Assembly (NCBI GenBank): GCA_964016885.1
Contig: OZ024740.1
Span: 278,132,001 to 278,196,000, forward strand
Direction of reading: 5' to 3'
Source: Eledone cirrhosa
Lineage: Eukaryota
Length of the DNA: 64,000 nt
Notes under the pieces: model-generated
Database searches by the model: none
Told to the model about the DNA's origin: nothing
Seen by the model: the letters and a program-made list of their open reading frames with translations, nothing else
Translations under genes and position numbers: made by a program
In this document: positions 451 through 41,855 of the stretch, piece by piece
Numbering within the stretch: the stretch's first letter is position 1
How the letters are laid out: each line of letters starts with the position of its first letter

Positions 451-2029
451 GTTGTCATATTTCCATCATAACAACACATTCAGCTTCCCAGCATCTTGTA
501 TTAAACTGCGAATTAATGCCGCGAATATTTGGAACGAAAGAATATTTGACTATTGAGTATTCAGAAAATCCAAGAGTAAAATCACCAATGTAGAGTAGAC
601 AAATCTTAAATAGAGCTTGGAGCAGATGTTACGTTAAGAGAACATTCGGACAGAATAGATTTGGATAGAATCTAGTGGATTTAAGAATATGTTAGAACTG
701 ATGAAGTAACGTGGTAAATGTTTAAGATAAACATCCATTATAGACTAACCTTAATCTTTTTAACTCAAGAGGACTGGGATCTGATGGAAGCAAATTTCCT
801 TCATCGATGTCAAGTTCAACATCTTTTTGGACTTCAATAATTTTTTCTGCTTCATTTCCGTTTTTCTTTCTTTTCTTTAACCTTCATATTAGATTATTAG
901 ATTATATGTTGTCTTTTTTTTTTCACCTGGACTGTATACTTATCTGTGTTATATCTATGTTACCATGTGAATCATCATAACTATAATGTAATTTCCCTCG
1001 TTAGACTCTATTCTTTTTATTCTTGGTGGTAGTAACACGTGGTTGTGTGTGTTGCTGCTGACTCCTGCAGATCCCCAAGGAAACACGTCCACACAGTTCA
1101 GCTGTTCTGGAGAATTGAAATCTATCTATTTATCTATATACTACTAAAACTCTGATCTTGCGTGCTTGCTTGCGTGCTTGCTTGTCTGTTATGTAATAGA
1201 GCCAAAAGGGCGTATAATTGGTAAATACTTTGAAAGCAAGTTGCCTCTGAAATGGGAATACAAATTGAATAAAACAAGTTTCGCGAAAATGTGACCCCGG
1301 GTTCCCGAGATTCGCGGGGTTTGGGGGTAAATCGTAAATAGCCACAACGGTGCATACTGGGAAAATACCTCGAAATTAACATAACCCTGTAAAACTTCGT
1401 AAATAACCAAAACATTGCATAATGAGAAAATACTCTGAATAAAACAAGTTTGGCGTAAATCGCACATGGACAATATTTTCAATTTTCCAAAAATAGCAAG
1501 GAATTCATCTAAATTCAATTTATCTTATTTTATAATGAATATCGAAAGAAATAATCCGTTTGTTTTTTGGTTGTCCATTCTGTAGGTAAGAGAGACAGAG
1601 AGGGGGTGAGAGAGAGAGAAAGAGAGAGTGAGGGTGAGAGAGAGAAAGAGAGAGAGTGAGGGGATGAGAGACAGCGTCCTTAACTTTTATTTATTTTAAC
1701 TCTCTCCCCTATCCATAACGTTATTTCTTTCTCTCTCTTTCACAGTTCTACTGCCACCGTGTGTATCTGTATGTGTATGTGTGCCAGTGCATGTGTTTAC
1801 GTACTTAGAGACATGTTTGTGTAACAGTACTTAAGTTAGAGACATATATATATATATATTTGTGTGTGTGTGTGTGTGTGTGTAGGATAACTTCGTAAAT
1901 AGCCCAAACGGTGCATAATGGAAAAATAGCCCTGTAAGTGATATAACCCTGAAATTGGGATAAAACAAGTTTGACGTAAATCGACATAACCTATTTTCAT
2001 CATTCGAGAAATATTTTTAATAATTATTA

Positions 2030-2610
2030 AAAAAAGATTTTTCAGTGATTTCTCAGTGAATATGATTTCAAAACTACAAGTTGTTTGTACTTCAAGTATC
2101 TATATTTGAGCTTTCTTTAAACAGACGATATTTTATTTATCAGAATAGCATTAAGTGAATATCACTGAAAAATACCAGTTGGTGTTAAACAGTAGGTGTT
2201 TATATTTTTGCTTTTGTTAAAAAAAATATTTCAATTATTTAAAAATATTTAAAAGTGAATTTGATTTCACAAATAGTTTTATTTACATAGACAATATCTT
2301 CATTTTTTTTTTATTATTTTCAAGTGAATACGATGGAAAAAATGTTTCTTGGCATATTTAAAAAATATTCTTAAGTGAAAATGACTTAAAAAATACAAAT
2401 TATTTGTACACCGAGTATATATATTTCAGCTTTCTTTAAACAGAATATTTTAATTATTAATAAGTATTTTTTAAGTGAATATGATTTGAAAATACGAGTT
2501 GTTTAAACAGACAATATTTTCATTATTTACAAATATTTCTAAATGCTGATTTAAAAAAAATATTTGTTGAGGTAATATGAATTTTTTCTAAGGTGAATAC
2601 GATTTTCGAT
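2030..2610. repeat. Degenerate AT-rich tandem repeats in the Helitron 5' non-coding region
   Basis: Recurrent blocks AAGTGAATATGATTT...AAATAC(A/G)AGTTGTTT...AAACAGACAATATTTT. Confidence 0.55.
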
Positions 2611-2618
2611 TCTTAAAT

Positions 2619-5600
2619 AATGCCTCGACGAGGAGGAAAGAAAACATCTGGTTGGTTTATCGATAGTGGAAAGCACGACAACAAGATCGGGACAGGCATG
2701 CGACTAGAAGGATTGATGAGACTGATAAAGCAAGGGCTGCGCGTCTGGTGGAACAGAGGGAAAGAGACAGAAGCAGGAGAGATCATGAATCGGATGGTCG
2801 GAGAGCTGAGCGTCTGACGGAACAGAAGGAAAGATACAGAAGCAGGAGATATCATGAATCGGAAGGTCTGAGAGCTGAGCGTCTGACGGAACAGAAGAAA
2901 AGAGACAGAAGCAGGAGATATCATGAATCGGATGGTCTGAGAGCTGAGCGTCTGGCGGAACAGAAGGAAAGAGACAGAAGCAGGAGATATCATGAATCGG
3001 AAGGTCTGAGAGCTGAGCGTCTGACGGAACAGAAGAAAAGAGACAGAAGCAGGAGATATCATGAATCGGATGGTCTGAGAGCTGAGCGTCTGGCGGAACA
3101 GAAGGAAAGAGACAGAAGCAGGAGTTATCATGAATCGGATGGTCTGAGAGCTGAGCGTCTGGCGGAACAGAAGGAAAGAGACAGAAGCAGGAGATATCAT
3201 GAATCGGAAGGTCTGAGAGCTGAGCGTCTGACGGAACAGAAGAAAAGAGACAGAAGCAGGAGATATCATGAATCGGATGGTCTGAGAGCTGAGCGTCTGG
3301 CGGAACAGAAGGAAAGAGACAGAAGCAGGAGATATCATGAATCGGAAGGTCTGAGAGCTGAGCGTCTGATGGAACAGAAGAAAAGAGACAGAAGCAGGAG
3401 ATATCATGAATCGGATGGTCTGAGAGCTGAGCGTCTGGCGGAACAGAAGGAAAGAGACAGAAGCAGGAGATATCATGAATCGGAAGGTCTGAGAGCTGAG
3501 CGTCTGACGGAACAGAAGAAAAGAGACAGAAGCAGGAGATATCATGAATCGGATGGTCTGAGAGCTGAGCGTCTGGCGGAACAGAAAGAAAGAGACAGAA
3601 GCAGGAGATATCATGAATCGGAAGGTCTGAGAGCTGAGCGTCTGACGGAACAGAAGGAAAGAGACAGAAGCAGGAGATATCATGAATCGGATGGTCTGAG
3701 AGCTGAGCGTCTGGCGGAACAGAGGGAAAGAGACAGAAGCAGGAGATATCATGAATCGGAAGGTCTGAGAGCTGAGCGTCTGGCGGAACAGAAGGAAAGA
3801 GACAGAAGCAGGAGATATCATGAATCGGATGGTCTGAGAGCTGAGCGTCTGACGGAACAGAGGGAAAGAGACAGAAGCAGGAGAGATCATGAATCGGATG
3901 GTCTGAGAGCTGAGCGTCTGGCGGAACAGAGGGAAAGAGACAGAAGCAGGAGAGATCATGAATCGGAAGGTCTGAGAGCTGAGCGTCTGGCGGAACAGAA
4001 GAAAAGAGACAGAAGCAGGAGATATCATGAATCGGATAGTCTGAGAGCTGAGCGTCTGGCGGAACAGAGGGAAAGAGACAGAAGCAGGAGATATTATGAA
4101 TCGGATGGTCTGAGAGCTGAGCGTCTGGCGGAACAGAGGGAAAGAGACAGAAGCAGGAGATATCATGAATCGGATGGTCTGAGAGCTGAGCGTCAGGCGG
4201 AACAGAGGGAAAGAGACAGAAGCAGGAGATATCATGAATCGGATGGTCTGAGAGCTGAGCGTCTGGCGGAACAGAGGGAAAGAGACAGAAGCAGGAGAGA
4301 TCATGAATCGGATGGTCTGAGAGCTGAGCGTCTGGCGGAACAGAGGGAAAGAGACAGAAGCAGGAGAGATCATGAATCGGATGGTCTGAGAGCTGAGCGT
4401 CAGGCGGAACAGAGGGAAAGAGACAGAAGCAGGAGAGATCATGAATCGGATGGTCTGAGAGCTGAGCGTCTGGCGGAACAGAGGGAAAGAGACAGAAGCA
4501 GGAGAGATCATGAATCGGATGGTCTGAGAGCTGAGCGTCTGGCGGAACAGAGGGAAAGAGACAGAAGCAGGAGAGATCATGAATCGGATGGTCGGAGAGC
4601 TGAGCGTCTGGCGGAACAGAGGGAAAGAGACAGAAGCAGGAGAGATCATGAATGGGATGGTCTGAGAGCTGAGAGTCTGGCGGAACAGAGGGAAAGAGAC
4701 AGAAGCAGGAGAGATCATGAATCGGATGGTCTGAGAGCTGAGCGTCTGGCGGAACAGAGGGAAAGAGACAGAAGCAGGAGAGATCATGAATGGGATGGTC
4801 TGAGAGCTGAGCGTCTGGCGGAACAGAGGGAAAGAGACAGAAGCAGGAGAGATCATGAATGGGATGGTCTGAGAGCTGAGCGTCTGGCGGAACAGAGGGA
4901 AAGAGACAGAAGCAGGAGAGATCATGAATGGGATGGTCTGAGAGCTGAGCGTCTGGCGGAACAGAGGGAAAGAGACAGAAGCAGGAGAGATCATGAATGG
5001 GATGGTCTGAGAGCTGAGCGTCTGGCGGAACAGAGGGAAAGAGACAGAAGAAGGAGAGATCATGAATGGGATGGTCTGAGAGCTGAGCGTCTGGCGGAAC
5101 AGAGGGAAAGAGACAGAAGCAGGAGAGATCATGAATGGGATGGTCTGAGAGCTGAGCGTCTGACGGAACAGAAGGAAAGAGACAGAAGCAGGAGATATTA
5201 TGAATCGGATGGTCTGAGAGCTGAGCGTCTGACGGAACAGAGGGAAAGAGACAGAAGAAGGAGATATCATGAATCGGATGGTCTGAGAGCTGAGCGTCAG
5301 GCGGAACAGAGGGAAAGAGACAGAAGAAGGAGATATCATGAATCGGATGGTCGGAGAGCTGAGCGTCTGGCGGAACAGAGGGAAACAGACAGAAGCAGGA
5401 GAGATCATGAATCGGATGGTCGGAGAGCTGAGCGTCTGGGGGAACAGAGGGAAACAGACACAAGAAGGAGAGATCATGAATCGGATGGTCGGAGAGCTGA
5501 GCGTCTGGCGGAACAGAGGGAAAGAGACAGAAGCAGGAGAGATCATGAATGGGATGGTCTGAGAGCTGAGCGTCTGGCGGAACAGAGGGAAAGAGACAGA

Positions 5601-8600
5601 AGCAGGAGATATCATGAATCGGATGGTCTGAGAGCTGAGCGTCTGGCGGAACAGAAGGAAAGAGACAGAAGCAGGAGATATCATGAATCGGATGGTCTGA
5701 GAGCTGAGCGTCTTGCGGAACAGAAGGGAAGAGACAGAAGCAGGAGATATCATGAATCGGAAGGTCTGAGAGCTGAGCGTCTGACGGAACAGAGGGAAAG
5801 AGACAGAAGAAGGAGATATCATGAATCGGATGGTCTGAGAGCTGAGCGTCTGACGGAACAGAAGAAAAGAGACAGAAGCAGGAGATATCATGAATCGGAT
5901 GGTCTGAGAGCTGAGCGTCTGGCGGAACAGAGGGAAAGAGACAGAAACAGGAGATATCATGAATCGGATGGTCTGAGAGCTGAGCGTCTGGCGGAACAGA
6001 GGGAAAGAGACAGAAACAGGAGATATCATGAATCGGATGGTCTGAGAGCTGAGCGTCTGGCGGAACAGAAGAAAAGAGACAGAAGCAGGAGATATCATGA
6101 ATCGGATAGTCTGAGAGCTGAGCGTCTGGCGGAAAGAGTGAAAGAGACAGAAGCAGGAGATATTATGAATCGGATGGTCTGAGAGCTGAGCGTCTGGCGG
6201 AACAGAGGGAAAGAGACAGAAGCAGGATAGATCATGAATCGGATGGTCTGAGAGCTGAGCGTCAGGCGGAACAGAGGGAAAGAGACAGAAGCAGGAGAGA
6301 TCATGAATGGGATGGTCGGAGAGCTGAGCGTCTGGCGGAACAGAGGGAAAGAGACAGAAGCAGGAGAGATCATGAATGGGATGGTCTGAGAGCTGAGCGT
6401 CTGGCGGAACAGAGGGAAAGAGACAGAAACAGGAGATATCATGAATCGGATGGTCTGAGAGCTGAGCGTCAGGCGGAACAGAGGGAAAGAGACAGAAGCA
6501 GGAGATATCATGAATCGGATGGTCGGAGAGCTGAGCGTCTGGCGGAACAGAGGGAAAGAGACAGAAGCAGGAGAGATCATGAATCGGATGGTCTGAGAGC
6601 TGAGCGTCTGGCGGAACAGAGGGAAAGAGACAGAAGCAGGAGAGATCATGAATCGGATGGTCTGAGAGCTGAGCGTCTGGCGGAACAGAGGGAAAGAGAC
6701 AGAAGCAGGATAGATCATGAATCGGATGGTCTGAGAGCTGAGCGTCAGGCGGAACAGAGGGAAAGAGACAGAAGCAGGAGAGATCATGAATGGGATGGTC
6801 TGAGAGCTGAGCGTCTGGCGGAACAGAGGGAAAGAGACAGAAGCAGGAGAGATCATGAATCGGATGGTCTGAGAGCTGAGCGTCTGGCGGAACAGAGGGA
6901 AAGAGACAGAAGCAGGAGAGATCATGAATCGGATGGTCGGAGAGCTGAGCGTCTGGCGGAACAGAGGGAAAGAGACAGAAGCAGGAGAGATCATGAATGG
7001 GATGGTCTGAGAGCTGAGCGTCTGGCGGAACAGAGGGAAAGAGACAGAAGCAGGAGAGATCATGAATGGGATGGTCTGAGAGCTGAGCGTCTGGCGGAAC
7101 AGAGGGAAAGAGACAGAAGCAGGAGAGATCATGAATCGGATGGTCTGAGAGCTGAGCGTCTGGCGGAACAGAGGGAAAGAGACAGAAGCAGGAGAGATCA
7201 TGAATGGGATGGTCTGAGAGCTGAGCGTCTGGCGGAACAGAGGGAAAGAGACAGAAGCAGGAAGATCATGAATGGGATGGTCTGAGAGTTGAGCGTCTGG
7301 CGGAACAGAGGGAAAGAGACAGAAGCAGGAGAGATCATGAATGGGATGGTCTGAGAGCTGAGCGTCTGGCGGAACAGAGGGAAAGAGACAGAAGAAGGAG
7401 AGATCATGAATGGGATGGTCTGAGAGCTGAGCGTCTGGCGGAACAGAGGGAAAGAGACAGAAGCAGGAGAGATCATGAATGGGATGGTCTGAGAGCTGAG
7501 CGTCTGACGGAACAGAAGGAAAGAGACAGAAGCAGGAGATATTATGAATCGGATGGTCTGAGAGCTGAGCGTCTGACGGAACAGAGGGAAAGAGACAGAA
7601 GAAGGAGATATCATGAATCGGATGGTCTGAGAGCTGAGCGTCAGGCGGAACAGAGGGAAAGAGACAGAAGAAGGAGATATCATGAATCGGATGGTCGGAG
7701 AGCTGAGCGTCTGGCGGAACAGAGGGAAACAGACAGAAGCAGGAGAGATCATGAATCGGATGGTCGGAGAGCTGAGCGTCTGGCGGAACAGAGGGAAACA
7801 GACACAAGAAGGAGAGATCATGAATCGGATGGTCGGAGAGCTGAGCGTCTGGCGGAACAGAGGGAAAGAGACAGAAGCAGGAGAGATCATGAATGGGATG
7901 GTCTGAGAGCTGAGCGTCTGGCGGAACAGAAGGAAAGAGACAGAAGCAGGAGATATCATGAATCGGATGGTCTGAGAGCTGAGCGTCTGGCGGAACAGAA
8001 GGAAAGAGACAGAAGCAGGAGATATCATGAATCGGATGGTCTGAGAGCTGAGCGTCTGGCGGAACAGAAGGAAAGAGACAGAAGCAGGAGATATCATGAA
8101 TCGGAAGGTCTGAGAGCTGAGCGTCTGACGGAACAGAGGGAAAGAGACAGAAGAAGGAGATATCATGAATCGGATGGTCTGAGAGCTGAGCGTCTGACGG
8201 AACAGAAGAAAAGAGACAGAAGCAGGAGATATCATGAATCGGATGGTCTGAGAGCTGAGCGTCTGGCGGAACAGAGGGAAAGAGACAGAAACAGGAGATA
8301 TCATGAATCGGATGGTCTGAGAGCTGAGCGTCTGGCGGAACAGAGGGAAAGAGACAGAAACAGGAGATATCATGAATCGGATGGTCTGAGAGCTGAGCGT
8401 CTGGCGGAACAGAGGGAAAGAGACAGAAACAGGAGATATCATGAATCGGAAGGTCTGAGAGCTGAGCGTCTGGCGGAACAGAGGGAAAGAGACAGAAGCA
8501 GGAGATATCATGAATCGGATGGTCTGAGAGCTGAGCGTCTGGCGGAACAGAGGGAAAGAGACAGAAACAGAATATATCATGAATCGGAAGGTCTGAGAGC

Positions 8601-11600
8601 TGAGCGTCTGGCGGAACAGAGGGAAAGAGACAGAAGCAGGAGATATCATGAATCGGATGGTCTGAGAGCTGATCGTCTGACGGAACAGAGGGAAAGAGAC
8701 AGAAGCAGGAGATATCATGAATCGGATGGTCTGAGAGCTGAGCGTCTGACGGAACAGAGGGAAAGAGACAGAAGCAGGAGAGATCATGAATGGGATGGTC
8801 TGAGAGCTGATCGTCTGACGGAACCGAGGGAAAGAGACAGAAGCAGGAGAGATCATGAATCGGATGGTCTGAGAGATGAGCGTCTGACGGAACAGAAGAA
8901 AAGAGACAGAAGCAGGAGATATCATGAATCGGATGGTCTGAGAGCTGAGCGTCTGGCGGAACAGAAGAAAAGAGACAGAAGCAGGAGATATTATGAATCG
9001 GATGGTCTGAGAGCTGAGCGTCTGGCGGAACAGAGGGAAAGTGACAGAAGCAGGAGATATCATGAATCGGATGGTCTGAGAGCTGAGCGTCAGGCGGAAC
9101 AGAAGGAAAGAGACAGAAGCAGGAGATATCATGAATCGGATGGTCTGAGAGCTGAGCGTCTGGCGGAACAGAGGGAAAGAGACAGAAGCAGGAGATATCA
9201 TGAATCGGATGGTCTGAGAGCTGAGCGTCTGGCGGAACAGAGGAAAAGAGACAGAAGCAGGAGAGATCATGAATCGGATGGTCTGAGAGCTGAGCGTCTG
9301 ACGGAACAGAAGAAAAGAGACAGAAGCAGGAGATATCATGAATCGGATGGTCTGAGAGCTGAGCGTCTGACGGAACAGAAGAAAAGAGACAGAAGCAGGA
9401 GATATCATGAATCGGATGGTCTGAGAGCTGAGCGTCTGGCGGAACAGAGGGAAAGAGACAGAAGCAGGAGAGATCATGAATGGGATGGTCTGAGAGCTGA
9501 GCGTCTGGCGGAACAGAGGGAAAGAGACAGAAGAAGGAGAGATCATGAATGGGATGGTCTGAGAGCTGAGCGTCTGGCGGAACAGAGGGAAAGAGACAGA
9601 AGCAGGAGAGATCATGAATGGGATGGTCTGAGAGCTGAGCGTCTGACGGAACAGAAGGAAAGAGACAGAAGCAGGAGATATTATGAATCGGATGGTCTGA
9701 GAGCTGAGCGTCTGACGGAACAGAGGGAAAGAGACAGAAGAAGGAGATATCATGAATCGGATGGTCTGAGAGCTGAGCGTCAGGCGGAACAGAGGGAAAG
9801 AGACAGAAGAAGGAGATATCATGAATCGGATGGTCGGAGAGCTGAGCGTCTGGCGGAACAGAGGGAAACAGACAGAAGCAGGAGAGATCATGAATCGGAT
9901 GGTCGGAGAGCTGAGCGTCTGGCGGAACAGAGGGAAACAGACACAAGAAGGAGAGATCATGAATCGGATGGTCGGAGAGCTGAGCGTCTGGCGGAACAGA
10001 GGGAAAGAGACAGAAGCAGGAGAGATCATGAATGGGATGGTCTGAGAGCTGAGCGTCTGGCGGAACAGAAGGAAAGAGACAGAAGCAGGAGATATCATGA
10101 ATCGGATGGTCTGAGAGCTGAGCGTCTGACGGAACAGAAGAAAAGAGACAGAAGCAGGAGATATCATGAATCGGATGGTCTGAGAGCTGAGCGTCTGGCG
10201 GAACAGAGGGAAAGAGACAGAAACAGGAGATACCATGAATCGGATGGTCTGAGAGCTGAGCGTCTGGCGGAACAGAGGGAAAGAGACAGAAACAGGAGAT
10301 ATCATGAATCGGAAGGTCTGAGAGCTGAGCGTCTGGCGGAACAGAGGGAAAGAGACAGAAACAGGAGATATCATGAATCGGATGGTCTGAGAGCTGAGCG
10401 TCTGGCGGAACAGAGGGAAAGAGACAGAAACAGGAGATATCATGAATCGGAAGGTCTGAGAGCTGAGCGTCTGGCGGAACAGAGGGAAAGAGACAGAAGC
10501 AGGAGATATCATGAATCGGATGGTCTGAGAGCTGAGCGTCTGGCGGAACAGAGGGAAAGAGACAGAAACAGGAGATATCATGAATCGGAAGGTCTGAGAG
10601 CTGAGCGTCTGGCGGAACAGAGGGAAAGAGACAGAAGCAGGAGATATCATGAATCGGATGGTCTGAGAGGTGATCGTCTGACGGAACAGAGGGAAAGAGA
10701 CAGAAGCAGGAGATATCATGAATCGGATGGTCTGAGAGCTGAGCGTCTGGCGGAACAGAGGGAAAGAGACAGAAGCAGGAGATATCATGAATCGGATGGT
10801 CTGAGAGCTGAGCGTCTGACGGAACAGAGGGAAAGAGACAGAAGCAGGAGAGATCATGAATGGGATGGTCTGAGAGCTGATCGTCTGACGGAACAGAGGG
10901 AAAGAGACAGAAGCAGGAGAGATCATGAATCGGATGGTCTGAGAGATGAGCGTCTGACGGAACAGAAGAAAAGAGACAGAAGCAGGAGATATCATGAATC
11001 GGATGGTCTGAGAGCTGAGCGTCTGGCGGAACAGAAGAAAAGAGACAGAAGCAGGAGATATTATGAATCGGATGGTCTGAGAGCTGAGCGTCTGGCGGAA
11101 CAGAGGGAAAGTGACAGAAGCAGGAGATATCATGAATCGGATGGTCTGAGAGCTGAGCGTCAGGCGGAACAGAAGGAAAGAGACAGAAGCAGGAGATATC
11201 ATGAATCGGATGGTCTGAGAGCTGAGCGTCTGGCGGAACAGAGGGAAAGAGACAGAAGCAGGAGATATCATGAATCGGATGGTCTGAGAGCTGAGCGTCT
11301 GGCGGAACAGAGGAAAAGAGACAGAAGCAGGAGAGATCATGAATCGGATGGTCTGAGAGCTGAGCGTCTGACGGAACAGAAGAAAAGAGACAGAAGCAGG
11401 AGATATCATGAATCGGATGGTCTGAGAGCTGAGCGTCTGACGGAACAGAAGAAAAGAGACAGAAGCAGGAGATATCATGAATCGGATGGTCTGAGAGCTG
11501 AGCGTCTGGCGGAACAGAGGGAAAGAGACAGAAGCAGGAGAGATTATGAATGGGATGGTCTGAGAGCTGAGCGTCTGACGGAACAGAGGGAAAGAGACAG

Positions 11601-14600
11601 AAGCAGGAGAGATCATGAATCGGATGGTCTGAGAGCTGAGCATCAGGCGGAACAGAAGGAAAGAGACAGAAGCAGGAGATATCATGAATCGGATGGTCTG
11701 AGAGCTGAGCGTCTGGCGGAACAGAGGGAAAGAGACAGAAGCAGGAGATATCATGAATCGGATGGTCTGAGAGCTGAGCGTCTGGCGGAACAGAGGGAAA
11801 GAGACAGAAGCAGGAGAGATCATGAAGCGGATGGTCTGAGAGCTGAGCGTCTGGTGGAACAGAGGGAAAGAGACAGAAGCAGGAGAGATCATGAAGCGGA
11901 TGGTCTGAGAGCTGAGCGTCTGGCGGAACAGAGGGAAAGAGACAGAAGCAGGAGATATCATGAATCGGAATGTCTGAGAGCTGAGCGTCTGGCGGAACAG
12001 AGGGAAAGAGACAGAAGCAGGAGAGATCATGAAGCGGATGGTCTGAGAGCTGAGCGTCTGGCGGAACAGAGGGAAAGAGACAGAAGCAGGAGATATCATG
12101 AATCGGATGGTCTGAGAGCTGAGCGTCTGGCGGAACAGAGGGAAAGAGACAGAAGCAGGAGAGATCATGAATGGGATGGTCTGAGAGCTGAGCGTCTGGC
12201 GGAACAGAGGGAAAGAGACAGAAGCAGGAGATATCATGAATCGGATGGTCTGAGAGCTGAGCGTCTGGTGGAACAGAGGGAAAGAGACAGAAGCAGGAGA
12301 TATCATGAATCGGATGGTCTGAGAGCTGAGCGTCAGGCGGAACAGAGGGAAAGAGACAGAAGCAGGAGATATCATGAATCGGATGGTCGGAGAGCTGAGC
12401 GTCTGGCGGAACAGAGGGAAAGAGACAGAAGCAGGAGAGATCATGAATCGGATGGTCTGAGAGCTGAGCGTCTGGCGGAACAGAGGGAAAGAGACAGAAG
12501 CAGGAGAGATCATGAATCGGATGGTCTGAGAGCTGAGCGTCTGGCGGAACAGAGGGAAAGAGACAGAACAAGGAGAGATCATGAATCGGATGGTCGGAGA
12601 GCTGAGCGTCTGGCGGAACATAGGGAAAGAGACAGAAGCAGGAGAGATCATGAATCGGATGGTCGGAGAGCTGAGCGTCTCACGGAACAGAAGGAAAGAG
12701 ACAGAAGAAAGGGAGATCATGAATCGGGCGCTCGGTGAACTTTGTCAACAAGCCATTAGGGATAGAGCAAGGACATTTCAACGACGTGACCTCTCTGCTG
12801 ATGTTGGACAGATGAATAAGATTTGTGTCTGTTGTCATGCAATGCTTTTTCATGGTGAAACTGCTAACTTTTGCTGTATGAATGGAAAAGTCAGGTTGGG
12901 GAATCTGCAGCCTTTACCCCAGGAACCTCACAGTTTTGTTAGTACTGATCAACCTAGAAGAACCTCAGACAATACAACTACCTGTTCCAAATGACATATT
13001 TTGGGGCCGAAGAAGGTCGTTCCTCAAGGAGTGGATGGAATCCTTCTATCGTTATGCATGGTCAAATTCTCCATTACATCGGTTCGTTAACCTCTAATCC
13101 AAACTAACAACCCCAATTTCTTCAAATTTACTTCTTGAATCCTCAGGATAGTGTTGATTTGAGGATCAGGATACTCCATAACGATGGCATTCAGCGCGAC
13201 ATAGTTGAATTATTGGAAATAATACTCAGACAATATAACCCTTACGTTGCTTCATTTTGAATGCCAAAAGATCAAATTAAAAATATTCCTGAAGCTTCGA
13301 TTATTATTGATCCTGATAGGAGACCAGCAATGGAACATGAGAGAAGATTCAATGCACAAACTGCAAACGAAGTTGCCGAACTTCAAGCAAAAGCACGGCA
13401 CATTGTGTTGAAAGAAAAAGGCGGACAATTGCAAATAATCTCAGAGTTCCATCGGTCCTATTAAAGTTTGCAGTATGTTCTATTTTTTTTCTTTTGGTGA
13501 TGACGGATGGCATCATGAGCTGTTAATGAGCAACAACAAGAAGTTGACGCTAATGCGCTACTATGCCTATCGAATAATGAACCATGAGATTGAATTCAAC
13601 CAACTTCTCAGAGGCGGTCGTTTATTTCAGCAATATTTGGTTGACATGGCTGCGAAGATTGAAGGAGATAGACTGCAATACATCCGAATGAATCAAACAT
13701 CATTACGATCTACAACATACAAGGGCCTTACTGACGCATTGAATGATGATGACGATTTTCGCATTATTGGCAGGCGAATCATACTCTCTTCCACATTTGT
13801 CGGTGGACCGAGATATATGATGGAGCGATGCCAGGATGCTGTGATGTACATACGGAAGTACGGCAATCCTTCGTTCTTCATCACAATGACATGCAATCCG
13901 AACTGGCCTGAAATCCGGCAAAACCTCTTCTTGAATCAGAAGCCACATGACAGGCCAGATTTAATTGCCAGAGTATTTGACCTGAAGCGAAATTGTTAAG
14001 AAAGTATCTTTCTGGAGTAGATGGCCTATTTGGCAAGTGCATAGCTTACGTGCTGACAGTCGAATATCAAAAGCGAGGTCTTCCTCATGTGCACTGTTTG
14101 CTATGGCTCAATGAAGCCTCCAAGCCCAGATCGCAGGAATATGATAAATTTGTTCAAGCCAAAATACTAGATCCAAACAAAGATCCAGAGGGTCATGAAT
14201 TGGTGCTGAATCTCATGATCCACGGTCCGAATTGCTCTAACAAATCGCCGTGTTGGAAAGATGGAACGTGCAGTAAGAGGTACCCTAAGCCTTTCAATGA
14301 ATATACATTGTGTGGAGAGGGCTCTTATCCTGTGTACAGAAGACCGTCTCCAGGAATGGGAGGATTTGAGGAGCACCAAGAAGGAAGGAGAAGCCGAAAT
14401 ATAACTTCGGAATGGGTGGTTCCCTACAATATGAAACTATTAAAACTGTTCAACTGCCACCTAAACGTATAGATGTGCTCTTCCGAGAAATCGATCAAAT
14501 ACGTTATCAAACATACCATGAAGGGCAGTGATCAGGGAAGATGAGATAATACAGTATTTAACAGGAAGATATATCGGTCATTCAGAAGCTGTTGCCTTGG

Positions 14601-16770
14601 TACTTGGATTTCCAATTCATGAGAGAGAACCGGCCGTTGTTCGCCTTCAAGTTCATCTACCTGAGGAAAATCAAATCTTCTTTCGGGTCAATGCAGCTTT
14701 TAAAGTAAACAATAACATGGCTAAGACGACTCTGACTGAGTTCATGGATCTTTGCGATCGCGATCCGTTTGCAAAAACATTGTATTATGCCGACGTGCCA
14801 AAGTTTTACACTTGGAGTAATAAGAGATGGGAAAGGAGAAAGGTGGGGGAAACAGTTGAGCAGTATCCAGGGATTTTTGAGGCGAACGTTTTTGGACGAG
14901 TATACACTGTTTCTCCACGAAGTGGTAACCTGTATTATTTAAGACTCCTTTTGCATCACGTCAAAGGGCCAGTATCCTTCAACTATTTGAAAATGTATGA
15001 TGGAGAACTCCTGCCATTATTCAAAGACTCTGCAGAGAGAACGGTTTGCTTCAATCGGATGATCATTGGCAGCAGACTCTGGAAGATGCTGAGCGAACAA
15101 GGCTTCCCAAAGCTATGAGAGATCTATTCATCGTGCTCCTCACAAATACGGAAATTGACAATTCCAGTGCTTTATGGGTTCGATTTAAGCATTCGCTGTG
15201 TAAAGATTACCATCAAATAAAAAAAGGGCTACCAGAAACTCTAACCTTTTGATTAGCGAGAGACATTATGATCAATGTCTTCTGTATTTTGAAGACAAAC
15301 TTAAAGACCTGGGCAAAAGTCTTAGCGACTTTAACTTGCCAAGGTCAAATAATATTGTTGCTAATCAGGATATTGGCAATTTGGAGTTATTGCATGAGTT
15401 GCAATACAGCAGAGAAAAGCAGCGACGATTTGTAGAAGAGACGGAGCCTCTATTGAATAGTGAACAAAAACACGTGTACAACTTCGTTTGTAACTGTTTA
15501 GAGACGAACACATCTGCATTGATTTTCATTGACGCTCCGGGTGGAAGAGGAAAGACATTCCTTATTAACTTAATTCTTTCAAAAGTCAGAGGAAACGGTG
15601 ACGTGGCTATTGCTCTTGCGTCATCTGGCATTGCCGCAACACTGATGCCTGGTGGAAGAACAGCGCATTCTAGGTTCAAAATACCGATATTAGTGAAAGA
15701 AAATGGTGTGTGCAACATTGATAAAAACTCAAAGACGGCAAACCTCTTCCAGCATACAAGGCTGATTGTTTGGGTTGAGTGTCCTATGATTCAGAGGGAA
15801 AGCTTCGAAGCTGTTGACCTCACTCTGCGTGACATATACGACAACAATGAGGCATTCGGTGGAATTTTGATAATTTTCTGTGGCGATTTCCGTCAGGTAG
15901 TGAAAAGGGGAAATAAAGCGGACGTGGAAAACGCCTGCATTAAAAAATCCTACTTATGGCGAAGCTTCAAAAGATTTCAGTTGAAGACAAATATGCGATT
16001 GGGTGGGGGAGCAGGAGACTATTCACAGTTCCTATTGGATGTTGGAGAAGATAAGTTAAAAAAAACTGAAAATTAGGAAATTATTTTGCCAGAAGAAATG
16101 GTTCTCCAAGCAACAATTATGGAAGAATGTATTGATTTCATCTACTCCTCATTCGACAATCCAGCTGAAGTGTTTTCGAACAATTGCATCTTAATACCTC
16201 TCATGAAATGATGAGAAGCATCAATTCCACCTGTATCAGACGCTTCCCTGAAACCATAAAAGAGTACCGATCCTATAATTCTGTGAATGATAGTGCCAAT
16301 ACCACTCATTTCGCGACTGAATTCCTTGATTCGGTTGAACTATCAGGACTGCCACCACATAACCTGGAATTGAAAAAAGGATTGCCAATAATTCTTATGA
16401 GAAACTTGAATCCGCCAAGGCTTTGTAAGGAACGCGCATGATCTCATAGTAGCAAGTATCAACACTGCTGCTTTCAGAAATGAGATCGTTATGATACCTA
16501 GAATAAGAATTAATCTATCCGAAGGTGAGGATATCCATTTGCAGCGAAGCCAATTCCCAGGTCAATCGTGCTTCACTATTCATAAAGCACAAGGACAAAC
16601 TATGGAAAACGTCTTGGTTTATCTGGAACGACCTGTATTCCAACACGGTCAACTGTATGTAGCCCTTAGCCCTTAGCCGCGGAAAACGAAAGAAAATGTC
16701 AGAGTGTTTCTGAAGGATACCCAGTCAACTAAGACTGTTGTCATCAAAAGCATTCTTTTGAACAAACTGT
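2619..16770 (+). pseudogene. Helitron Rep/Helicase (RepHel) pseudogene: STPR-like repeat array, Zn finger, HUH Rep, PIF1-type helicase
   Basis: Zn-finger CVCCHAMLFHGETANFCCMNGKV (~12820-12895); GRLFQQYLVD, FVGGPRYM, FFITMTCNPNWPEI, RPDLIARVF (13475-13999); HUH motif VEYQKRGLPHVH (~14060); KYVIKH (~14497); Walker A DAPGGRGKT, GDFRQ, GLPPHNLELKKG, TIHKAQGQT, HGQLYVALS. Split by several stops and frameshifts. Confidence 0.92.
2718..12720 (+). repeat. Coding minisatellite: 145 x 69-bp units encoding 23-aa STPR-like repeats
   Basis: Unit consensus GAATCGGATGGTCTGAGAGCTGAGCGTCTGGCGGAACAGAGGGAAAGAGACAGAAGCAGGAGA(T/G)ATCAT. Span of 10003 bp plus two 1-bp deletions (~6135, ~7263) equals 145 x 69. The peptide E-S-x-x-x-R-A-E-R-L...RR matches the STPR pattern E(T/S)xxxRxxRL. 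Confidence 0.9.
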
Positions 16771-17585
16771 AACAGCGTAAATATGAGAAAATGTTGAGTC
16801 TGACGTCAGAAAATGAAAGGAAAAGGAAAAACTAAGACAAGTAAGAATAATTTCTTTCAAATTTTTGTAAATAAAACCAGCTTTTGATTAACATTGCAAC
16901 TTTTTAAGCAGAAAAATCTTTCAGAAAAAACAGTCAAGCTTCCATAGAGATATAGAAAAAAAGAATTTTAAAGTGAAGTGATTGGATAGCTATTAGTGAA
17001 AAATGATTTGATATTTTCTTTGTGAAAATACTTGTGAATAATACAGTGAAAAGACAAGTTTCACGTAAATCGGACCACGGGTTCCCGAGATACGCGGGCT
17101 TTTTCAGGTACCTTTATAAATAGCCAAATCAGCGCATAATGGGAAAATTCTTTGAAAGTAAGGTACCATTTAAATGTGAATACAAACGCAGATAGTGGTT
17201 GTGAGAGAGAGAGAAGGAGAGAGCTGTGTGGTGTTGTTGAATGAAATTATGACAGGTGACTTCAAAGAATCGAATACAGCATTATCGTATCTAGCTTGAA
17301 TTTGGTGACTGAATTTTAAGTTATATGTATCTTATAACTTGCGTTAGGACAGGATTTATGTGCGTGTGTGTGTCTATAACCAGTGTATATAGGCCACAGA
17401 CACCCTCACACACAAACACACATATATATATACATACATATACACACATACATACACGTATATATATATATATATATATATTGGCTTTCCAATGTCATTT
17501 TACATTATATACATTTTGTGTATATTTTAATTATTTAAAAATTATTTTTAAATGAACATGACCCAACGGGTCACGGGTGGTCTAG

Positions 17586-18242
17586 TAAAATACTAAAAGT
17601 CTGTGATTGCTTGCTTGCTTGCATGGCTGTAATGTAATACAGTGAAAAGGGCGCATAATAGGAAAATACTTTGAAAGGAAGTTGACCCTGAAATGGGAAT
17701 ACAAATGGAATAAAAGTTTCGCGTAAATCGAAGCACAGGTTCACGAGATATGGGGTTTTTCCGGATACCTTCTTAAACAGAGAGAGAGAAAGATAGAGAG
17801 AAAGAGATAGTGGTTGTGAGAGAGTAGATTGAAAAAGTGACATAGAGAGAGGGGGGAGACAGAGAAGGAGAATGCAAGAGGGAAAGAGAGAGAGAGAGAG
17901 AAAGAGATTGTGGTGTTCTTGTGTATATATATATGTGAGTATGTGTGTATATATATATGTGTGTGTGTATGTGTGTGTGTGTGTGTGTGCGTGTGTGTGT
18001 CTATGACCAGTGTATATAGATCACAGACACCCACATATATATATACACAAACACACATTTATATATATATACATACACACACGTATATATATATATATGG
18101 GACTTCCTGTTTCATTTCACATTACATACATGTGTGTGTATATTTTGATTATTTAAAAATTATTTCTAAATGAACATGAGTTTTTAAAAATATTTGTGAA
18201 AAATATAAGTGAACTTGACCCAACAGGTCACGGGTAGCCTAG
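17586..18242 (+). mobile_element. Non-autonomous Helitron copy, head-to-tail with the main element
   Basis: Start TAAAATACTAAAAGTCTGTGATTGCTTGCTTGC... is homologous to the 1133-1320 5' end. It ends TGACCCAACAGGTCACGGGTAGCCTAG|T (CTAG at 18239-18242). Confidence 0.85.
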
Positions 18243-21900: not shown

Positions 21901-23258
21901 CAAAAATAGGTGGTGTTACTTCGGAGAGTCTTCCTTACCATCTAGGACCACAAGCATGAGAGTAGAAAAACAAAACAGGTAGTTTCAATATTGCTGACAT
22001 GTAGTGTCACTAGCGAGTCTGTTTGTGGGATTTTAAACACCTTTTGGGATCTTGCTAGATACTATACACAACCGTTTGAAACGAGGCGTTGCTGTCAAAA
22101 TATCATAAGGGCCATGTATGGTTGACTCACTGTTGTTGGACCACTCTGGCATCAAGTAGTGGTGTGCGCTAAATGACATGGGTAATGCCAAAGTTTTAGG
22201 GATTGATGTGTTTCGTAAGCTTGTGACGAGAAAGCGGGAAAAAAACTTACAATTAACAGAGATTCTTCATTTTATCGGCTTCGATATAAGAGTGATAGTG
22301 ATCTCTACTCCGAGGAATAGTAGAGAGTGATAGAACACAGGGGATTGTTAGTCCCATGGCGGGGAGTTAAAACTAGTTAAAAGGTTAAGTGTCTTCCTAA
22401 TGCTGACGAAAGCTAGTGTATTAAAAATTGTTAGCTTCTGTTTACGAAGGTTGACTCACTTCTCATACTAGAATATACAAACTTGAATTGGAAAGAGAAG
22501 ACGTGGAAGTACATACATTTGGTGAAAAGAACGAAAGCGGCTAAGATCACAAACAGAAGAGAAGAAAAACAAACATATGACTGCGTATTAATTATCAAGG
22601 TTTTGAAATACATAGATATCAACTGGCACTTTGTGTTATATGATCTTTTATAGGGTTAGCCTTTACAGGGTTCGTATTTGTTTTGTTTATTTATGGAGGG
22701 AAAGGATATTTCAAGATTCACATTCATATACGGAAGAACATGGAATATACTGAACAGAGTTATACATTCGATTGATGTATTACTAATAAATATATCATGT
22801 CTAAAGGGTAACACAGCTTTATCACAGTTTATACCGTGGTGTTGTTATTTAATTTTCGTTCATATTTACTTACAGCAAATACCTTTATTTCTGTTGACGC
22901 TAGCATTATTATCTAAAATCTATTTACCATATTTCGTTTATTAAATGTTCGAAGATTAATTAGAAAGAAGAATTTATTCACCATTCCTTTTAACATTCGA
23001 CACTTCTTGTAGAACCTCTGTAACTGTGTATACGATGTCCCGCCTAAAATCTCCAGTTATATTTAAACATAAACTGGCAAAATTATCAGACAATGTCAGA
23101 AATAAACAAACAAATGGGTACAAATATCAATTGTATGAAGGAATATATAGTCTCCGACCAAATTTGAAAAGTGCCCACAGCTTCCAAATACACAAAACAC
23201 TTCTTTCTAATTATTGAAATATTTAATATTTATTTTCCTATATGTATATTCTAAAGTT

Positions 23259-23867
23259 ATGCGCATCGGCGTTTCCCTGAGGCTCGGCCTCCGGATCTGC
23301 CAGACACACCAATGTCGCTGCGGTTCCACCGTGGACTCTTTCGGCCTCCACCCGCTTTCCTGCCGCCACTGTGCCGGTCGCATTCCACGCCATGCTGCCC
23401 TCAACGAGGTCATTAAGCATGGCTTGGACGCTGCAGGCTTCCCTTCCCAGCTCGAGCCGGTGGGGCTGGATCGAGGGAACAGCAAAAAGCCAGATGGCAT
23501 GACTATCTTCCCGTTCCACGGTGGCAGACCCCTCGTCTGGGATGCCACTTGCACCGACACTTTCAGCAGCCGCATCCTGGTGCAGTCTGCGACTGACCCA
23601 GGTTCTGCTGCACGTCGGGCTGAGGGGGCCAAACTCCTCAAATACCGGTCGCTCTCCGACAGGTTTGCGGCCGTACCCCTGGCACTGGAAACTTCTGGTG
23701 TCCTCGGCTCCAGGGCTACCTCCTTACTCACCACCATAGGCGCTAAGCTGGCCAGCCGCAGGTGTGATCCCCGCGAGTTGGAGTGGCTCTTCCAGCGCGT
23801 CTCCCTCGCCGTCCTCCGGGAAAACGCCTTCTCCATTCTGTCCGCCGGGACTGCGGATATCGAGTGA
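23259..23867 (+). mobile_element. CRE-clade non-LTR retrotransposon 3' fragment (Zn knuckle plus restriction-like endonuclease)
   Basis: GC-rich open frame: CRCGSTVDSFGLHPLSC, RHAALN, KPDGMTIFPF...WDATC, VPLALETSG, LFQRVSLAVLRENA. Confidence 0.8.
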
Positions 23868-24140
23868 GTTAATCGGCCGATTAACTCACTCGATATGCAA
23901 ATTAGGCTGCTCAACCGTTAATATGCATAAGGAAAGTATATACTTTCAGACGTTCAATCATCTGGCAGGAAGGTATACGTTGCTGACGATAGCTAATAAG
24001 CTTGAAACTAGTACAGCGTACCTTTGTCAGTGTTGAACAAATGAGCACGATGATTTCTAGACACTGTACGGCTTAATTCGGGTTGTTTGTTTACAAACAC
24101 ACCGAGCATTATAATAAATGTTCGGTGAATCCATACGTAG
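23857..24140 (+). mobile_element. Penelope-like terminal repeat (pLTR) fragment with 5' fold-back
   Basis: Perfect 40-bp palindrome at 23857-23896, hammerhead motif, AATAAA, ends in (TA)n. A second copy lies at 48110-48355. Confidence 0.7.
23971..24022 (+). ncRNA. Minimal type I hammerhead ribozyme
   Basis: GGTATACGTTG-CTGACGA-T-AGC-TAATAA-GCT-T-GAAA-CTAG-TA|CAGCGTACC: conserved core, stems I and II, palindromic helix III. Confidence 0.7.
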
Positions 24141-27621: not shown

Positions 27622-27750
27622 ATAACAGATTAAAGTTTAAGCAAAGAATCACAGCTTTCACCCTTAACGGGATTTTCTGAAACAGCGATTGTTGCTTAAA
27701 CTTTAATCTGTTATTTTAATAAATATTTGCTCTATGGTTTTATATATTTT
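27622..27750 (+). repeat. PLE-like fragment with inverted repeat
   Basis: ATAACAGATTAAAGTTTAAGCAA...TTGCTTAAACTTTAATCTGTTAT; homologous to 56084-56350. Confidence 0.55.
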
Positions 27751-27760
27751 TATATATATA

Positions 27761-28636
27761 CGAGGTGTGTCAGAAAAGTTTCAGGACTGATGTCACAAAA
27801 TATTTATTTCAAACCAAAACTTCAAACTAAGAGTTTTCTCCTTCAAAGTAATCCCCCTGGGGTATGTAACTGTAATCTTAGCTCTCTGCAGCGATGTAAC
27901 TTTTTTCTTCATAATTTTATATACATGTCCTCTGTTTCAGGTCGTCAAGCAATGAGCACAGAGCAACGAACAAACTTGAAGTTTCTGGTACGATTGGGGA
28001 AAACTCCGTCAGAAGCACTGGGATTGCTGCAGCAAGTGTATGGGGATGAGACGATGTCACGCTCACGTGTTTTTGAGTGGTGCACGAGGTTTAAAGAAGG
28101 ACGCGAGGACGTGAAAAATGACCCCAGGAGCGGAAGGCCCTCAACAGCCAGGTCTGAGGTCAACGTTGAGCACGTCAGGTAGATGGTGCGTAGCGATCGT
28201 CGGCTGACTGTTCGACTGATGGCAAATGAGCTGGGCATGAATCGGGACAGCGTCTGGAAGATTCTCACTGAGGATTTGGACATGCGGAAAGTCTGCGCGA
28301 AGATGGTGGCAAAACTGTTGAACGATGACCAGAAGGGTCGACGCATGCAAGTGTGCCAGGACATCCTCGAGCGTCTTGAAACCGAACCAGACTTGCTAGG
28401 GACAGTCATCACCGGTGATGAGTATGGATCTTCGAGTACGACCCGGAGGGGACCCGTTTTGAAGACGTGGACGACATCAAAAAGTCCGTGACGACGGAAC
28501 TGCGGAGGATCCCGGAAGAATCCTTGCAGGAGTGCATACAAGCGTGGCAGAAAAGGATGGAAAAGTGCATTAGACTCCAGGGGGGGGGGTTACTTTGAAG
28601 GAGAAAACTTTTAGTGTGAATATTTTTTAAAAAATA
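27761..28636 (+). mobile_element. mariner (Tc1/mariner) transposon, internally deleted, right end missing
   Basis: TA|CGAGGTGTGTCAGAAAAGTT start. ATG at 27952: MSTEQRTNLKFLVRLGK...RSGRPST...RKVCAKMV...VITGDE, then a jump to GTRFEDVDDIK...KCIRLQG.YFEG. In-frame stop at 28180-28182. Confidence 0.85.
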
Positions 28637-36233: not shown

Positions 36234-39200
36234 TGTTTCTTTTATTTGCCACCAGGGCATCAAAAGTGGGACAAGTACAATGGGGGGAGTTTACAAAACA
36301 AGGCGTCCTCAATAAGGAGGAGGCAATAACAAAATATAAAAATAAAATAAAATATAACAGAATAAAATTTATAACAAAATCCTCAATAGAGAGGAGGCAA
36401 TAACAAAATATAAAAATAAAATAAAATATAACAGAATAAAATTTATAACAAAATCCTCAATAGAGAGGAGGCGCCTTGGGTGGGCGCACACACCCCCGAA
36501 AAAAAAGTGTGCAACCCTTTTCCTCAGGATCACAGAGAAGGGGTGCTCCCTTGGTCTTTCATCTTCCTCACCTATAGTCTGATGTAGAGTGAAGGCCCAT
36601 TCACACGGGCCATTCTCGCCACTTTCACCCATCTTTCATAAAAAAGGCTGGGGTGCAGCACCTCTCTCTCCATCCTGATCCTTCTTCCGAAATGATATCG
36701 GAAGAAACGGACCTGTTGTTGGCCAGAGAGAAAGGTGTCTGACCTCAGTCCTTTCAGACGCGTCCACCATACAACCTCTTTCGCCATGGCTATTACGCAC
36801 AGAAACACCGCCTCTCCTTCGTTTTTGAAGAGGGGAGGCGGCTTGGTCGTTACAATAGACTCGGTGGTCAACCGGATCGGTCCCACCCTTGACAGCAGTT
36901 GTTCGACATAGCCTCACAGATCGGCAATGCCCGAGCAGTGTACCAATGCGTGTGCAACGGTTTCCTCGTCGCACACGCATCTGGGACAGATCTTTTTCGA
37001 GGGGTCCCTACCCGGGCGCCCGTGTCTGTAGAGCCTTTCTCGAACGGGCAGAACCCTTCTGTAGCTTTGCCAGGCCAGGGACCTCTGGAAGTTATCCATG
37101 GGTCCCGGGCTGAATGTCCTACCGAACAGGTTTGCCAGTTCGTCTTCCTCCATGCCTAGGGCTTCTCCGAGGGCGTCGTCGCACCTGCTAACCACCAGCC
37201 CTCTATAGAATGACGAAGTGGATTCTCCACTGACAGCCGGGTCCGTCTGCCAGAGAGCCGTGAGCGCCTGGGCACACTCGATGTGCCAGGAGCCCAGTTT
37301 TCTCGGTCTTTGCTTGACCCAGGATTGCAGCTCGGTGAGTGAAACGAGTCTGGGAAAGGCTCGCCTCACAAACGGTGCACACACCGGTTGACCGGAGAGG
37401 AATACCTGAAGGTGCCGTAGCCTTAATGCGTGTTTACGTATCATTAGCCACGGCATTCCCAGCCCTCCTTTCGAAGGGTGTTGACAGCAGATGGATCACC
37501 TCACCGTAGGAGCCCGCTTCTTCCAAAGGAATTGGAAGAGTGCGCGCTCCATTTTGGCGAGCGTTTCCCTTGGGCAAGGCACAACGGTCAGGCGGTAGTA
37601 GATGACGGACGTTATATAAGTGTTCGCCACCTCCGCCCGACTTTTCAGGGACAGTTTGCACTCGGCCCACTTCTGGGTCAGTGCAAACACCCTGTTCGTT
37701 ACCTCACCCCAGTTCTTCTCCACCTGGAGGTCTGGTCCGAACCAGACTCCGAGCAACTTCACCGGGCCCTCCGTCCAGCGCCCGACGACGCCATCGGAGG
37801 ACATCGATCTGCCCCTCCACGTTCCGAGTTGCAGACCGATCGACTTGTCCCGGTTCAGCTTAGCCCCTGTAAACCTTTCGTACTCCTCCAGTAAGGTGCC
37901 GATCGCCCCGATTTCCGAGGCCGTCGACACCATTACTGTTACGTCATCAGCGTAGGCTGACACCGCTTTCCGCAATCCCAGTTCCAACGGTATGCCCTGC
38001 AACAACTCCAACTTCCGCAGCAGTGGCTCTTGAGTCACTACATACAGAAGGGAGGAGAGAGGGCACCACTGTCGGATGGACCGCGCGATTTCGAACGGCT
38101 CCGAGAGGTAGCCGTTCACCTTGACCCTAGAGCAGATGCGGCTGCTGTGCATGGCATTGATCCAGCCCCTGAAAACGGGTCCGAAGCCTGCTGCCGCTAG
38201 CACCGCATCCAGGTAACCATGGTCGACCCTATCGAATGCCTTAGATTGATCCAAGTTGATCCGGGCCCCACCAAAGCCGGGTTCGTTCCCAACCCTCTCT
38301 ATGATCTATCGCATGAGGTGGAGGTTGTGGTGGATGGACCTGGACGGGATAGCACATGTCTGCGCATCTCCCACCAGGTTTCCCACGACAAGCGCCAACC
38401 TCTTTGCTAGCACCTTGGCCAAAATCTGTAACTCTGTATTTAGCAGAGTTATGGGCCTGAAATTATTTATATCGTCCCCCTTGTTCTCGTCCTTCCTCAC
38501 TAGCGTGACTACGCCCTTGGTCACAGCACAGGGAATTCTCCCGTTCTGTTGCCAGTTGCAGTAGACCGCCTCGAGGAGATCGGGGAACAAGTCCGGCATA
38601 GCTAGATATAGTTCGTATGGAAGACAATCGAGACCCGGGGATTTGCGTTTGCCGCATTGGCTCAGCGCGGCCTCTATCTCAGCGGCTGAAATCGGCTCCT
38701 CGCAGGACTTCGCCTCCCTGCCCGAGAGACGCGGCAGGCCGTCGAGGTATGGACCGAAGTCCACATCCCCAACCGGCCCCCCGCCCTTCCTAACAATCCG
38801 GCAACTGCTTTTGAAAAGCCTCGCACATCTGCTTAGGTTCAAGGATCACCCGCCCATACTGGTCTCGCAAAGACCGGATAGTGGATCTGCTCCCTCTTTT
38901 GGCTTCTGTCACGCGGGCCCAGCTAACAGCTTTGGTCCCCTCGTTCCCTAGAGCACGTATTTTACTTCGTACAACGCAGCCTTCGTGCTTCGCGTCGGAA
39001 AACTGGCTCAAAGCCGTTCTCGACGCTAGCACTGTGGCTACGTCGCCGCTTCTAATTGCCTCTTCTACACTATCTACCAACTTATTTTCCTTCCTGTTTC
39101 TATTAGAGGCTAACTCCTTACTAAATTCTATAGAGACTACTCTAATCTCTCTTTTGAGAGATCCCCACCACCTGCTGTTGACGATGGCGCCCGTCAACCG

Positions 39201-39478
39201 CTCCTTAACTAAAGTGCTAATCCGGTTCCTGTAAGCCTTACTTGCCGGTAAGGACAAGTTGAGCTTCCAGTAACCGGGTCCCTGTCTATGAGTTCTGTCA
39301 AGGTTGACCATGCAGGTCACTAACTTGTGGTCTAAATAGCCAACCATGCACATTTTTGGACAACTTGAAAATTCCTTATCCTTAATTCTAACTAAGAACC
39401 TATCTAGGTACGACCTAGATGATCCGCTACTATTTGCCCAAGTCCAGGTTGGCGCAGTCGGAAAATCTAGTCGATATC
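36233..39478 (-). mobile_element. Tx1/L1-group LINE, 5'-truncated ORF2 (APE C-terminus, RT, Zn knuckle) with frameshifts
   Basis: TWTW...SRSYLDR...LDHK...GPGYWKLN; KSPGLD, NFRPITLLN, DQSKAFDRVDH, SIRQWCPLS, AYADDVTV; CPRCVCDEETVAHALVHC. AATAAA at the 3' end and a ~74-bp duplication at 36315-36470. Confidence 0.9.
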
Positions 39479-39547
<69 letters not shown>

Positions 39548-39549
39548 TT

Positions 39550-41316: not shown

Positions 41317-41320
<4 letters not shown>
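40380..41320 (-). mobile_element. PLE 3' fragment (GIY-YIG endonuclease plus pLTR)
   Basis: CKTKNVVYSIKCTEGTCRNMTTYIGETARNIGKRIDQH. Hammerhead core on the reverse strand: CTGATGA-TGTTGCAGATGTGCAAC-GAAA (40574-40601). Second copy at 54960-56015. Confidence 0.85.

Positions 41321-41375
<55 letters not shown>

Positions 41376-41379
<4 letters not shown>

Positions 41380-41821: not shown

Positions 41822-41826
<5 letters not shown>
41376..41826 (+). repeat. ~160-bp-arm palindrome (centre 41535) with unpaired tail, PLE-like fold-back insertion in (TA)n
   Basis: 41376-41533 is the near-perfect reverse complement of 41537-41694. Confidence 0.85.

Positions 41827-41855
<29 letters not shown>

Follow-up and report, generated by a model that had tools for sequence, protein, structure and literature searches.

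A tandem array of 145 units of 69 bp, each coding for one 23-residue repeat of the STPR type, lies within a Helitron copy of Eledone cirrhosa and raises the question of whether it is a domain of a protein or a satellite that has descended from one. The copy is located on contig OZ024740.1 (assembly GCA_964016885.1), in the stretch of 64,000 nucleotides between positions 278,132,001 and 278,196,000 of the forward strand that was analyzed here and is referred to as the window. An earlier, sequence-only reading of the window had offered two answers: a modular nucleic-acid-binding domain within a transposase, or a coding satellite born from a transposon. Our analysis makes it very probable that the array belongs to a broken Helitron1 (HLE1) whose short STPR repeat likely expanded to 145 units through unequal exchange once the element was dead, and that it is a non-coding minisatellite and not a protein domain.

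The dimensions of the array and its place in the element agreed with what had been described. Tandem Repeats Finder returned a period of 69, 144.8 copies and 96% matches (2736-12727), and a walk from unit to unit delimited 145 units at 2718-12720 on the plus strand, one divergent lead unit followed by 144 internal ones. Sixty-two of the 145 units are distinct, two units have 68 bp, and there is no N anywhere in the window. The array is situated between the Helitron ATG (2620) and a Cys-rich motif (12824-12877) of the RepHel transposase. This motif was read from the translation and gave no Pfam match; we assume that the name zinc finger applies to it. The proposed STPR identity was borne out by a profile search, in which four units reached 29.6 bits against Pfam STPRs (PF21107, cut-off 27) and the segment 7546-12735 reached 117 bits; one lone unit gave no match to PF21107. 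The units have the 23-residue period of STPRs with E1, T/S2 and R9. Among the internal units E1 and R6 are present in 144 of 144 and R9 in 142, and position 2 is S in 114 and W in 27. The near invariance of E1, R6 and R9 that had been pointed out is therefore real; however, it is not special to these residues, since 11 of the 23 positions are conserved in no fewer than 140 of the 144 units. Leu5 and Tyr22 of the unit quoted in that reading are mutations of the window copy, the family having Arg5 and Asp22.

The element carrying the array is a whole HLE1 copy of 16,453 bp (1133-17585, plus strand), delimited by ends that it has in common with sister copies in differing flanks. As is characteristic of HLE1 (5' TC, 3' CTRR, insertion between A and T), it starts with TC and terminates with CTAG, and it is inserted between A (junction 1132/1133) and T (junction 17585/17586). 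A short hairpin with a 6-bp stem (17559-17573) precedes the terminal CTAG (hairpin and terminus 17559-17585, plus strand) and is the same in the seven sister 3' ends listed; we call it because of this conservation and not because of its fold score, which by itself is weak (z = -1.92, with 10 of 200 shuffles folding equally well). Directly behind the CTAG, a short related non-autonomous Helitron-like element with its own hairpin and CTAG follows head to tail (17586-18242), and the same arrangement of a Helitron copy and a short non-autonomous element was seen at the sister loci L037 and L041.

Downstream of the array the copy retains a decayed RepHel (12721-16772, plus strand), recognized by Pfam and by sister alignment, with the Cys-rich motif, Helitron_like_N, the HUH and Y2 motifs and a PIF1 helicase. 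The order of Rep followed by PIF1 helicase was supported by PF14214 (E 7e-43), PF05970 (E 9e-62) and PF21530 (E 3e-11). The HUH motif (14062) is intact; the second Tyr of the Y2 motif (14491) is changed to His, the Thr of Walker A (15540) to Arg and the Asp of Walker B (15765) to Val. Further, this RepHel has 15 indels, 12 of them frameshifting, and six in-frame stops, and over 4073 sites it departs by 112 substitutions (2.75%) from the majority sequence of the family, which was derived from 17 aligned copies and has a frame open for 1386 codons. Single-base codon changes comprised 75 non-synonymous, 26 synonymous and 5 stop changes, where 68, 26 and 6% are expected without selection; the window RepHel has thus decayed at neutral proportions. 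Lacking an intact RepHel frame and an intact set of catalytic motifs, the copy is not an autonomous, active Helitron. All 16 aligned sisters are broken too (3-12 frameshifts each), and, of the helicase matches listed with more than 55% identity, none has an open frame longer than 1127 aa.

A continuous protein of about 3,300 aa, as had been suggested, is not encoded, as the frame is cut at 2673, ~6135, ~7263 and 12736. The frame of the transposase start codon (2620-2817, plus strand) ends after 65 aa with a stop at 2815. It is interrupted by a 46-bp deletion after 2673, detected by alignment with four sisters; the distance from the ATG to the first unit is 98 bp in the window and 144 bp in 39 of the 57 sister copies that have an ATG. 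Two 1-bp deletions, near 6135 and 7263, split the repeat frame itself into three pieces (2667-6182, 6122-7285 and 7225-12738). At its downstream end the array is cut off from RepHel because a point change has turned an Arg codon into TGA (12736-12738, plus strand) and an 8-bp deletion follows after 12739, as established by sister alignment. Two minus-strand frames over the array, of 1848 and 2194 codons, are open as well. Such long frames persist because the monomer has no stop in the frame concerned, and open frames of several kilobases in arrays of this kind are no sign of a gene.

To compare the array with its relatives, we used searches of the same genome that gave 41 DNA matches, for which the best 40 of 139 candidates were scored, and 157 protein matches, for which the best 147 of 4571 were, and a census of 89 other loci ranked by RepHel likeness. 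Counting units in sister copies had been named as a check by the sequence-only reading, and the counts were low: 73 of the 89 loci carry units, with a median of 3 and largest values of 11, 16, 17, 19, 23 and 24. In the 16 loci without a unit, 11 have neither array flank in the fetched stretch, so that a long array there could escape the count. The window array is six times as large as the largest sister array seen, and both the Helitron context and the unusual size had been recognized correctly. Of the 57 ATG-bearing sisters, 48 have an ATG in the frame of the first unit; at L057 the ATG frame runs through seven units into RepHel. A second, unrelated STPR-bearing Helitron family has between 3.5 and 21.5 units in four copies (L113 21.5, L114 5.5 and L115 3.5 units); its fourth copy (L111:8158-L112:3311, i.e., G000:C2:315526157-315531310) contains a whole STPR-Rep-PIF1 frame of 1718 codons with ~12 units that are 97% alike, and is possibly young or active. 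It is usual for these transposases to have a short in-frame STPR arm with a varying number of units.

Other STPR-like sequences were encountered in the same genome, for which a Pfam scan scored 150 of 2172 candidates. L070, L072, L076, L096, L110 and L027 are divergent subfamilies in which the lead region or the 5' tract is of another kind and the units number 6-16. Additional 69-bp arrays unlike the window unit are present at L121:6777-7775 (14.5 units), L117:7176-7484 (4.5 units) and L118:6275-6654 (5.5 units), and an STPR match on C25 recurs three times ~10.4 kb apart, which suggests a tandem triplication.

The array is far younger than the decay of the copy in which it lies. Independent ageing of the 144 internal units at the RepHel rate would have produced ~273 private substitutions, with ~37 indels and ~11 stops besides; observed were 20 singleton substitutions (40 distinct alleles in all), two indels and no stop, and 111 of the 144 units have an identical twin. 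The terminal lineages of the array have about 7% of the age of the Helitron copy. Some alleles that few or none of 60 sisters have are abundant here (R5L in 127, D22Y in 83 and A11T in 33 of the 144 units), and S2W (27 units) and D3E (16 units) were seen in none of the 60. All five likely arose at the window locus and were copied afterwards. The copying involved blocks of units: units 23-48 correspond to units 57-82, a higher-order duplication of 26 units with 11 differences (4236-8373, plus strand, from unit comparison), units 68-76 to 99-107 with no difference, and units 88-98 to 118-128 with two. Block duplications occur at lags of 30, 31, 34 and 65 units, adjacent units differ by 2.66 as compared with 3.50 for the average pair, and the mean pairwise difference between units is 5.1%. 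Nested blocks and similarity between neighbors are what slippage and unequal exchange are expected to leave behind.

The longest exact repeats in the array are 700, 649 and 509 bp, and together with the 26-unit block and its 11 differences they would fit an array that is shorter in the animal and was over-expanded in the assembly by its repeating blocks; the two 1-bp deletions could then be consensus errors. However, the 62 distinct units alone amount to more than twice the largest sister array, the duplicated blocks differ and are nested at several lags with no exact repeat above 700 bp, and, in sequence free of N, the array passes on either side without irregularity into one Helitron copy. 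The differing blocks seem to fit a real duplication better than a pasted segment, and we regard over-expansion as very improbable. Among the contigs of four public runs, none bridges the 5' junction of the window copy. Over 12725-13450 the public-run contigs have the family letters and not the private ones of the window, one run being without cover, so that none of them represents an independent sample of the locus. No RNA data set was listed among the public runs holding the sequence, which bears on expression in neither direction.

It may also be asked whether the array was long from the start, i.e., whether an active sub-lineage with a very long in-frame STPR arm existed, of which this copy was inserted with its array and later turnover homogenized the units. 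Unit number does vary in open frames (17 at L052, ~12 at L111-L112, 8 and 12 in the database proteins P0001 and P0002, see below), and the mean pairwise difference of 5.1% is deep enough to go back roughly to the time of insertion. Several founding units would, however, explain such deep splits equally well. The window copy is related to its sisters in a star-like manner and shares few derived RepHel changes with any of them, the long-array copies included: only 0-6 with each of the 16 sisters (L033 1, L036 0, L037 3). These few common changes indicate that there was no long-array sub-lineage and that long arrays arose separately. Further, the longer sister arrays amplified private alleles of their own, which differ from those in the window, and none of the 73 unit-bearing sisters has more than 24 units. 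A long-armed ancestor is thus very unlikely.

No sign of purifying selection was found on the array, as 5 of its 40 distinct alleles are synonymous where neutrality predicts 9.3 (P 0.07). None of the 17 amplified alleles that were not inherited from the family is synonymous (binomial P 0.011), whereas in 17 sister arrays 13 of 54 alleles are (Fisher P 0.029), a bias which points away from purifying selection, although this set is a post hoc choice among six frames in which three inherited alleles were left out. The other five frames have no synonymous excess among amplified alleles either (smallest P 0.42). An array that is out of frame with its ATG and with a dead RepHel, and that shows no purifying selection, does not support the modular 145-unit DNA-binding domain on a transposase that had been envisaged.

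These non-synonymous alleles might instead be the trace of a host function. If the two 1-bp deletions were consensus errors, the host could have co-opted the array and express it alone, either from the single in-frame Met at 3369 (~3,100 aa) or by splicing it in as an exon. The product would be a transposon-derived polymer of helices for the major groove, binding and coating 4-bp-periodic microsatellite DNA and diversifying under selection, for which the zinc-finger array of PRDM9 offers a comparison. The lack of a stop in 145 units would agree with this, and the backbone-contact residues R6, R9, L10 and R20 are largely kept. However, as the array stands it contains two frameshifts and no other domain in frame. 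Dead sister arrays expand in the same way, stops included: stop-bearing units have been amplified in L034 (5 of 23), L089 (4 of 10) and L077 (7 of 9). In FMBP-1 of Bombyx the base contacts are made by positions 13, 14, 17 and 21 (PMC4856987, as far as its available text goes), and only R21I (3 units) among the 17 amplified alleles falls on one of them. The amplified changes thus avoid the base-contact positions and do not behave as selection for a new specificity predicts, and we consider co-option of this kind very improbable.

A minisatellite that expanded in a dead element accordingly remains the preferred reading. The array is arranged head to tail, its monomer is derived from part of a transposon, and its amplification and homogenization were independent of coding constraint. 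The idea of a transposon-born coding satellite holds as far as the satellite is concerned; it is coding only by descent. The insertion would have arrived with a handful of STPR units, and these founding units would have mutated no faster or slower than RepHel. Blocks of 1 to ~30 units may then have been copied by slippage and by unequal crossing-over or sister-chromatid exchange, with most of the copying probably falling in the last tenth or so of the life of the copy. Several observations weigh against this account. Concerted evolution of an already long array would also clear singletons, and the length of the array rests on one assembly. There is no stop in the 145 units, although with 40 distinct alleles this has a chance of 0.19 and is a weak point, and the fully non-synonymous set of amplified alleles is unexplained. 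Finally, a transposase frame can stay open with more than ten units in its array, as seen in L052, where a 552-aa frame extends from the ATG through 17 units into RepHel, and in L111-L112 with its ~12 units.

What the STPR arm does in a living transposase may be indicated by the 5' end of the element. Here, 24 bp inside the terminus, a tract with a 4-bp period comprises eight units of the CTTG/CGTG type (1157-1188, plus strand), a candidate target of the ancestral STPR arm. Such tracts could be measured in 38 of the 41 sister 5' ends and have 5-11 units there, and the four copies of the second family (L111, L113, L114 and L115) all have a GTTT-type 4-bp tract that lies ~20 bp inward from the 5' TC. 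In both STPR families examined, the period of the tract equals the 4-bp footprint of one STPR helix. Further, 11 of 41 sister 5' ends adjoin a TA or TATC microsatellite, compared with 2% of background windows; a target preference could produce this adjacency, and so could slippage from the element's own end. No correlation was found between tract length and STPR unit number (rho 0.21, P 0.24, 34 copies), as is expected if the unit number changed after insertion. In a living transposase a short STPR arm would lie in the major groove with 4 bp per helix. It is conceivable, if rather doubtful, that the arm reads the 5' 4-bp tract or TA/TATC tracts during end recognition or target choice, and if it reads the 5' tract, the way in which these transposases locate their left end would be accounted for. 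Tracts with a 4-bp period are known from insect Helitrons, and the accessible portions of the reports assign no function to them (PMC4344730, PMC4067079).

The remainder of the window contains further repetitive sequences. A 470-bp tandem repeat with ~4.4 copies in two runs and 99% identity lies between TA microsatellites at 50900-52949. Open frames at 23200-23900, 27700-28200, 36900-39600, 41000-45700, 54970-55510 and 60200-61620 presumably are fragments of LINE reverse transcriptases, mariner, Penelope-like GIY-YIG elements and hAT transposase. No host exon was recognized in a reading of the open frames of the window.

STPR domains described so far have 3-7 repeats, mostly four, and the helices of FMBP-1, of 23 residues each, span 4 bp apiece in the major groove, where R6, R9, L10, Y16 and R20 lie on the backbone (available text of PMC4856987). 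The window unit agrees with this Bombyx domain in its 23-residue period, its basic composition and the register of E1, S/T2, R6, R9, L10 and R20. However, the residues that form the thymine-methyl pocket of FMBP-1, together with Tyr16 (M13, S14, Y16, A17 and L21; the same source), are absent from the window units, where they are replaced by Q, R/K, R, D and R, so that the preference for AT-rich DNA cannot be carried over. A search of the PDB with the sequence of four units gave no match at E up to 10.

Of the database proteins found, those of Physella acuta (P0001, P0002) and Rhinoraja (P0004) are the closest; they have 43-49% identity to a sister N-terminus and likewise bear 23-aa units in front of RepHel. 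By motif count these are 8, 12 and ~4 units, respectively, in annotated continuous proteins, unlike the window copy. The search yielded 20 matches among 7979 scored candidates of 794-2265 aa, a range outside which proteins with very long arrays would lie. In the literature, we found STPR and Helitron together only in the HELIANO paper and its preprint, and no paper on STPR-derived satellites or on STPRs reading Helitron ends, in a coverage that excluded subscription journals and Repbase reports.

The HELIANO survey, in its available text, lists STPRs as a stable extra domain of HLE1, nearly confined to HLE1 and placed upstream of RepHel (PMC11417382). HLE1 elements with STPRs have the same TC...hairpin-CTAG ends, A/T insertion and Helitron_like_N plus PIF1 as the window copy, which differs from them in having 145 units and in being dead. 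That survey, as far as its available text goes, counts STPRs in open reading frames apart from RepHel and gives no unit counts; in the intact relatives analyzed here (L111-L112, P0001 and P0002) STPRs and RepHel are read in one frame and the number of units varies, neither of which is described in the same text.

Satellites born from Helitrons or Helentrons are known as well, namely Cg_HINE of oyster (PMC7492417) and Heli2Xen of Xenopus (PMC12001565), and non-coding satellites occur in Helitrons of Paramecium (PMC13085455); satellites from transposon open reading frames are listed for LINE ORF2, gag and CACTA Tnp2 (PMC9659126), all according to the parts of these sources that were available. 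Cg_HINE and Heli2Xen have in common with the window array that a tandem array was amplified inside a rolling-circle element. According to the same partial texts their repeats do not code, have a central or terminal position and were spread by transposition, whereas the window array is made of the DNA-binding repeat of the element's own transposase and probably grew at one locus after the death of the element. As both STPRs on Helitrons and Helitron-derived satellites have been published, a minisatellite formed in a dead Helitron from a repeat that codes for DNA binding is a variant of these systems. It is one in which the birth of a satellite from a protein-coding repeat can be dated, with the dead RepHel as the clock and dozens of sisters of 1-24 units as the controls.

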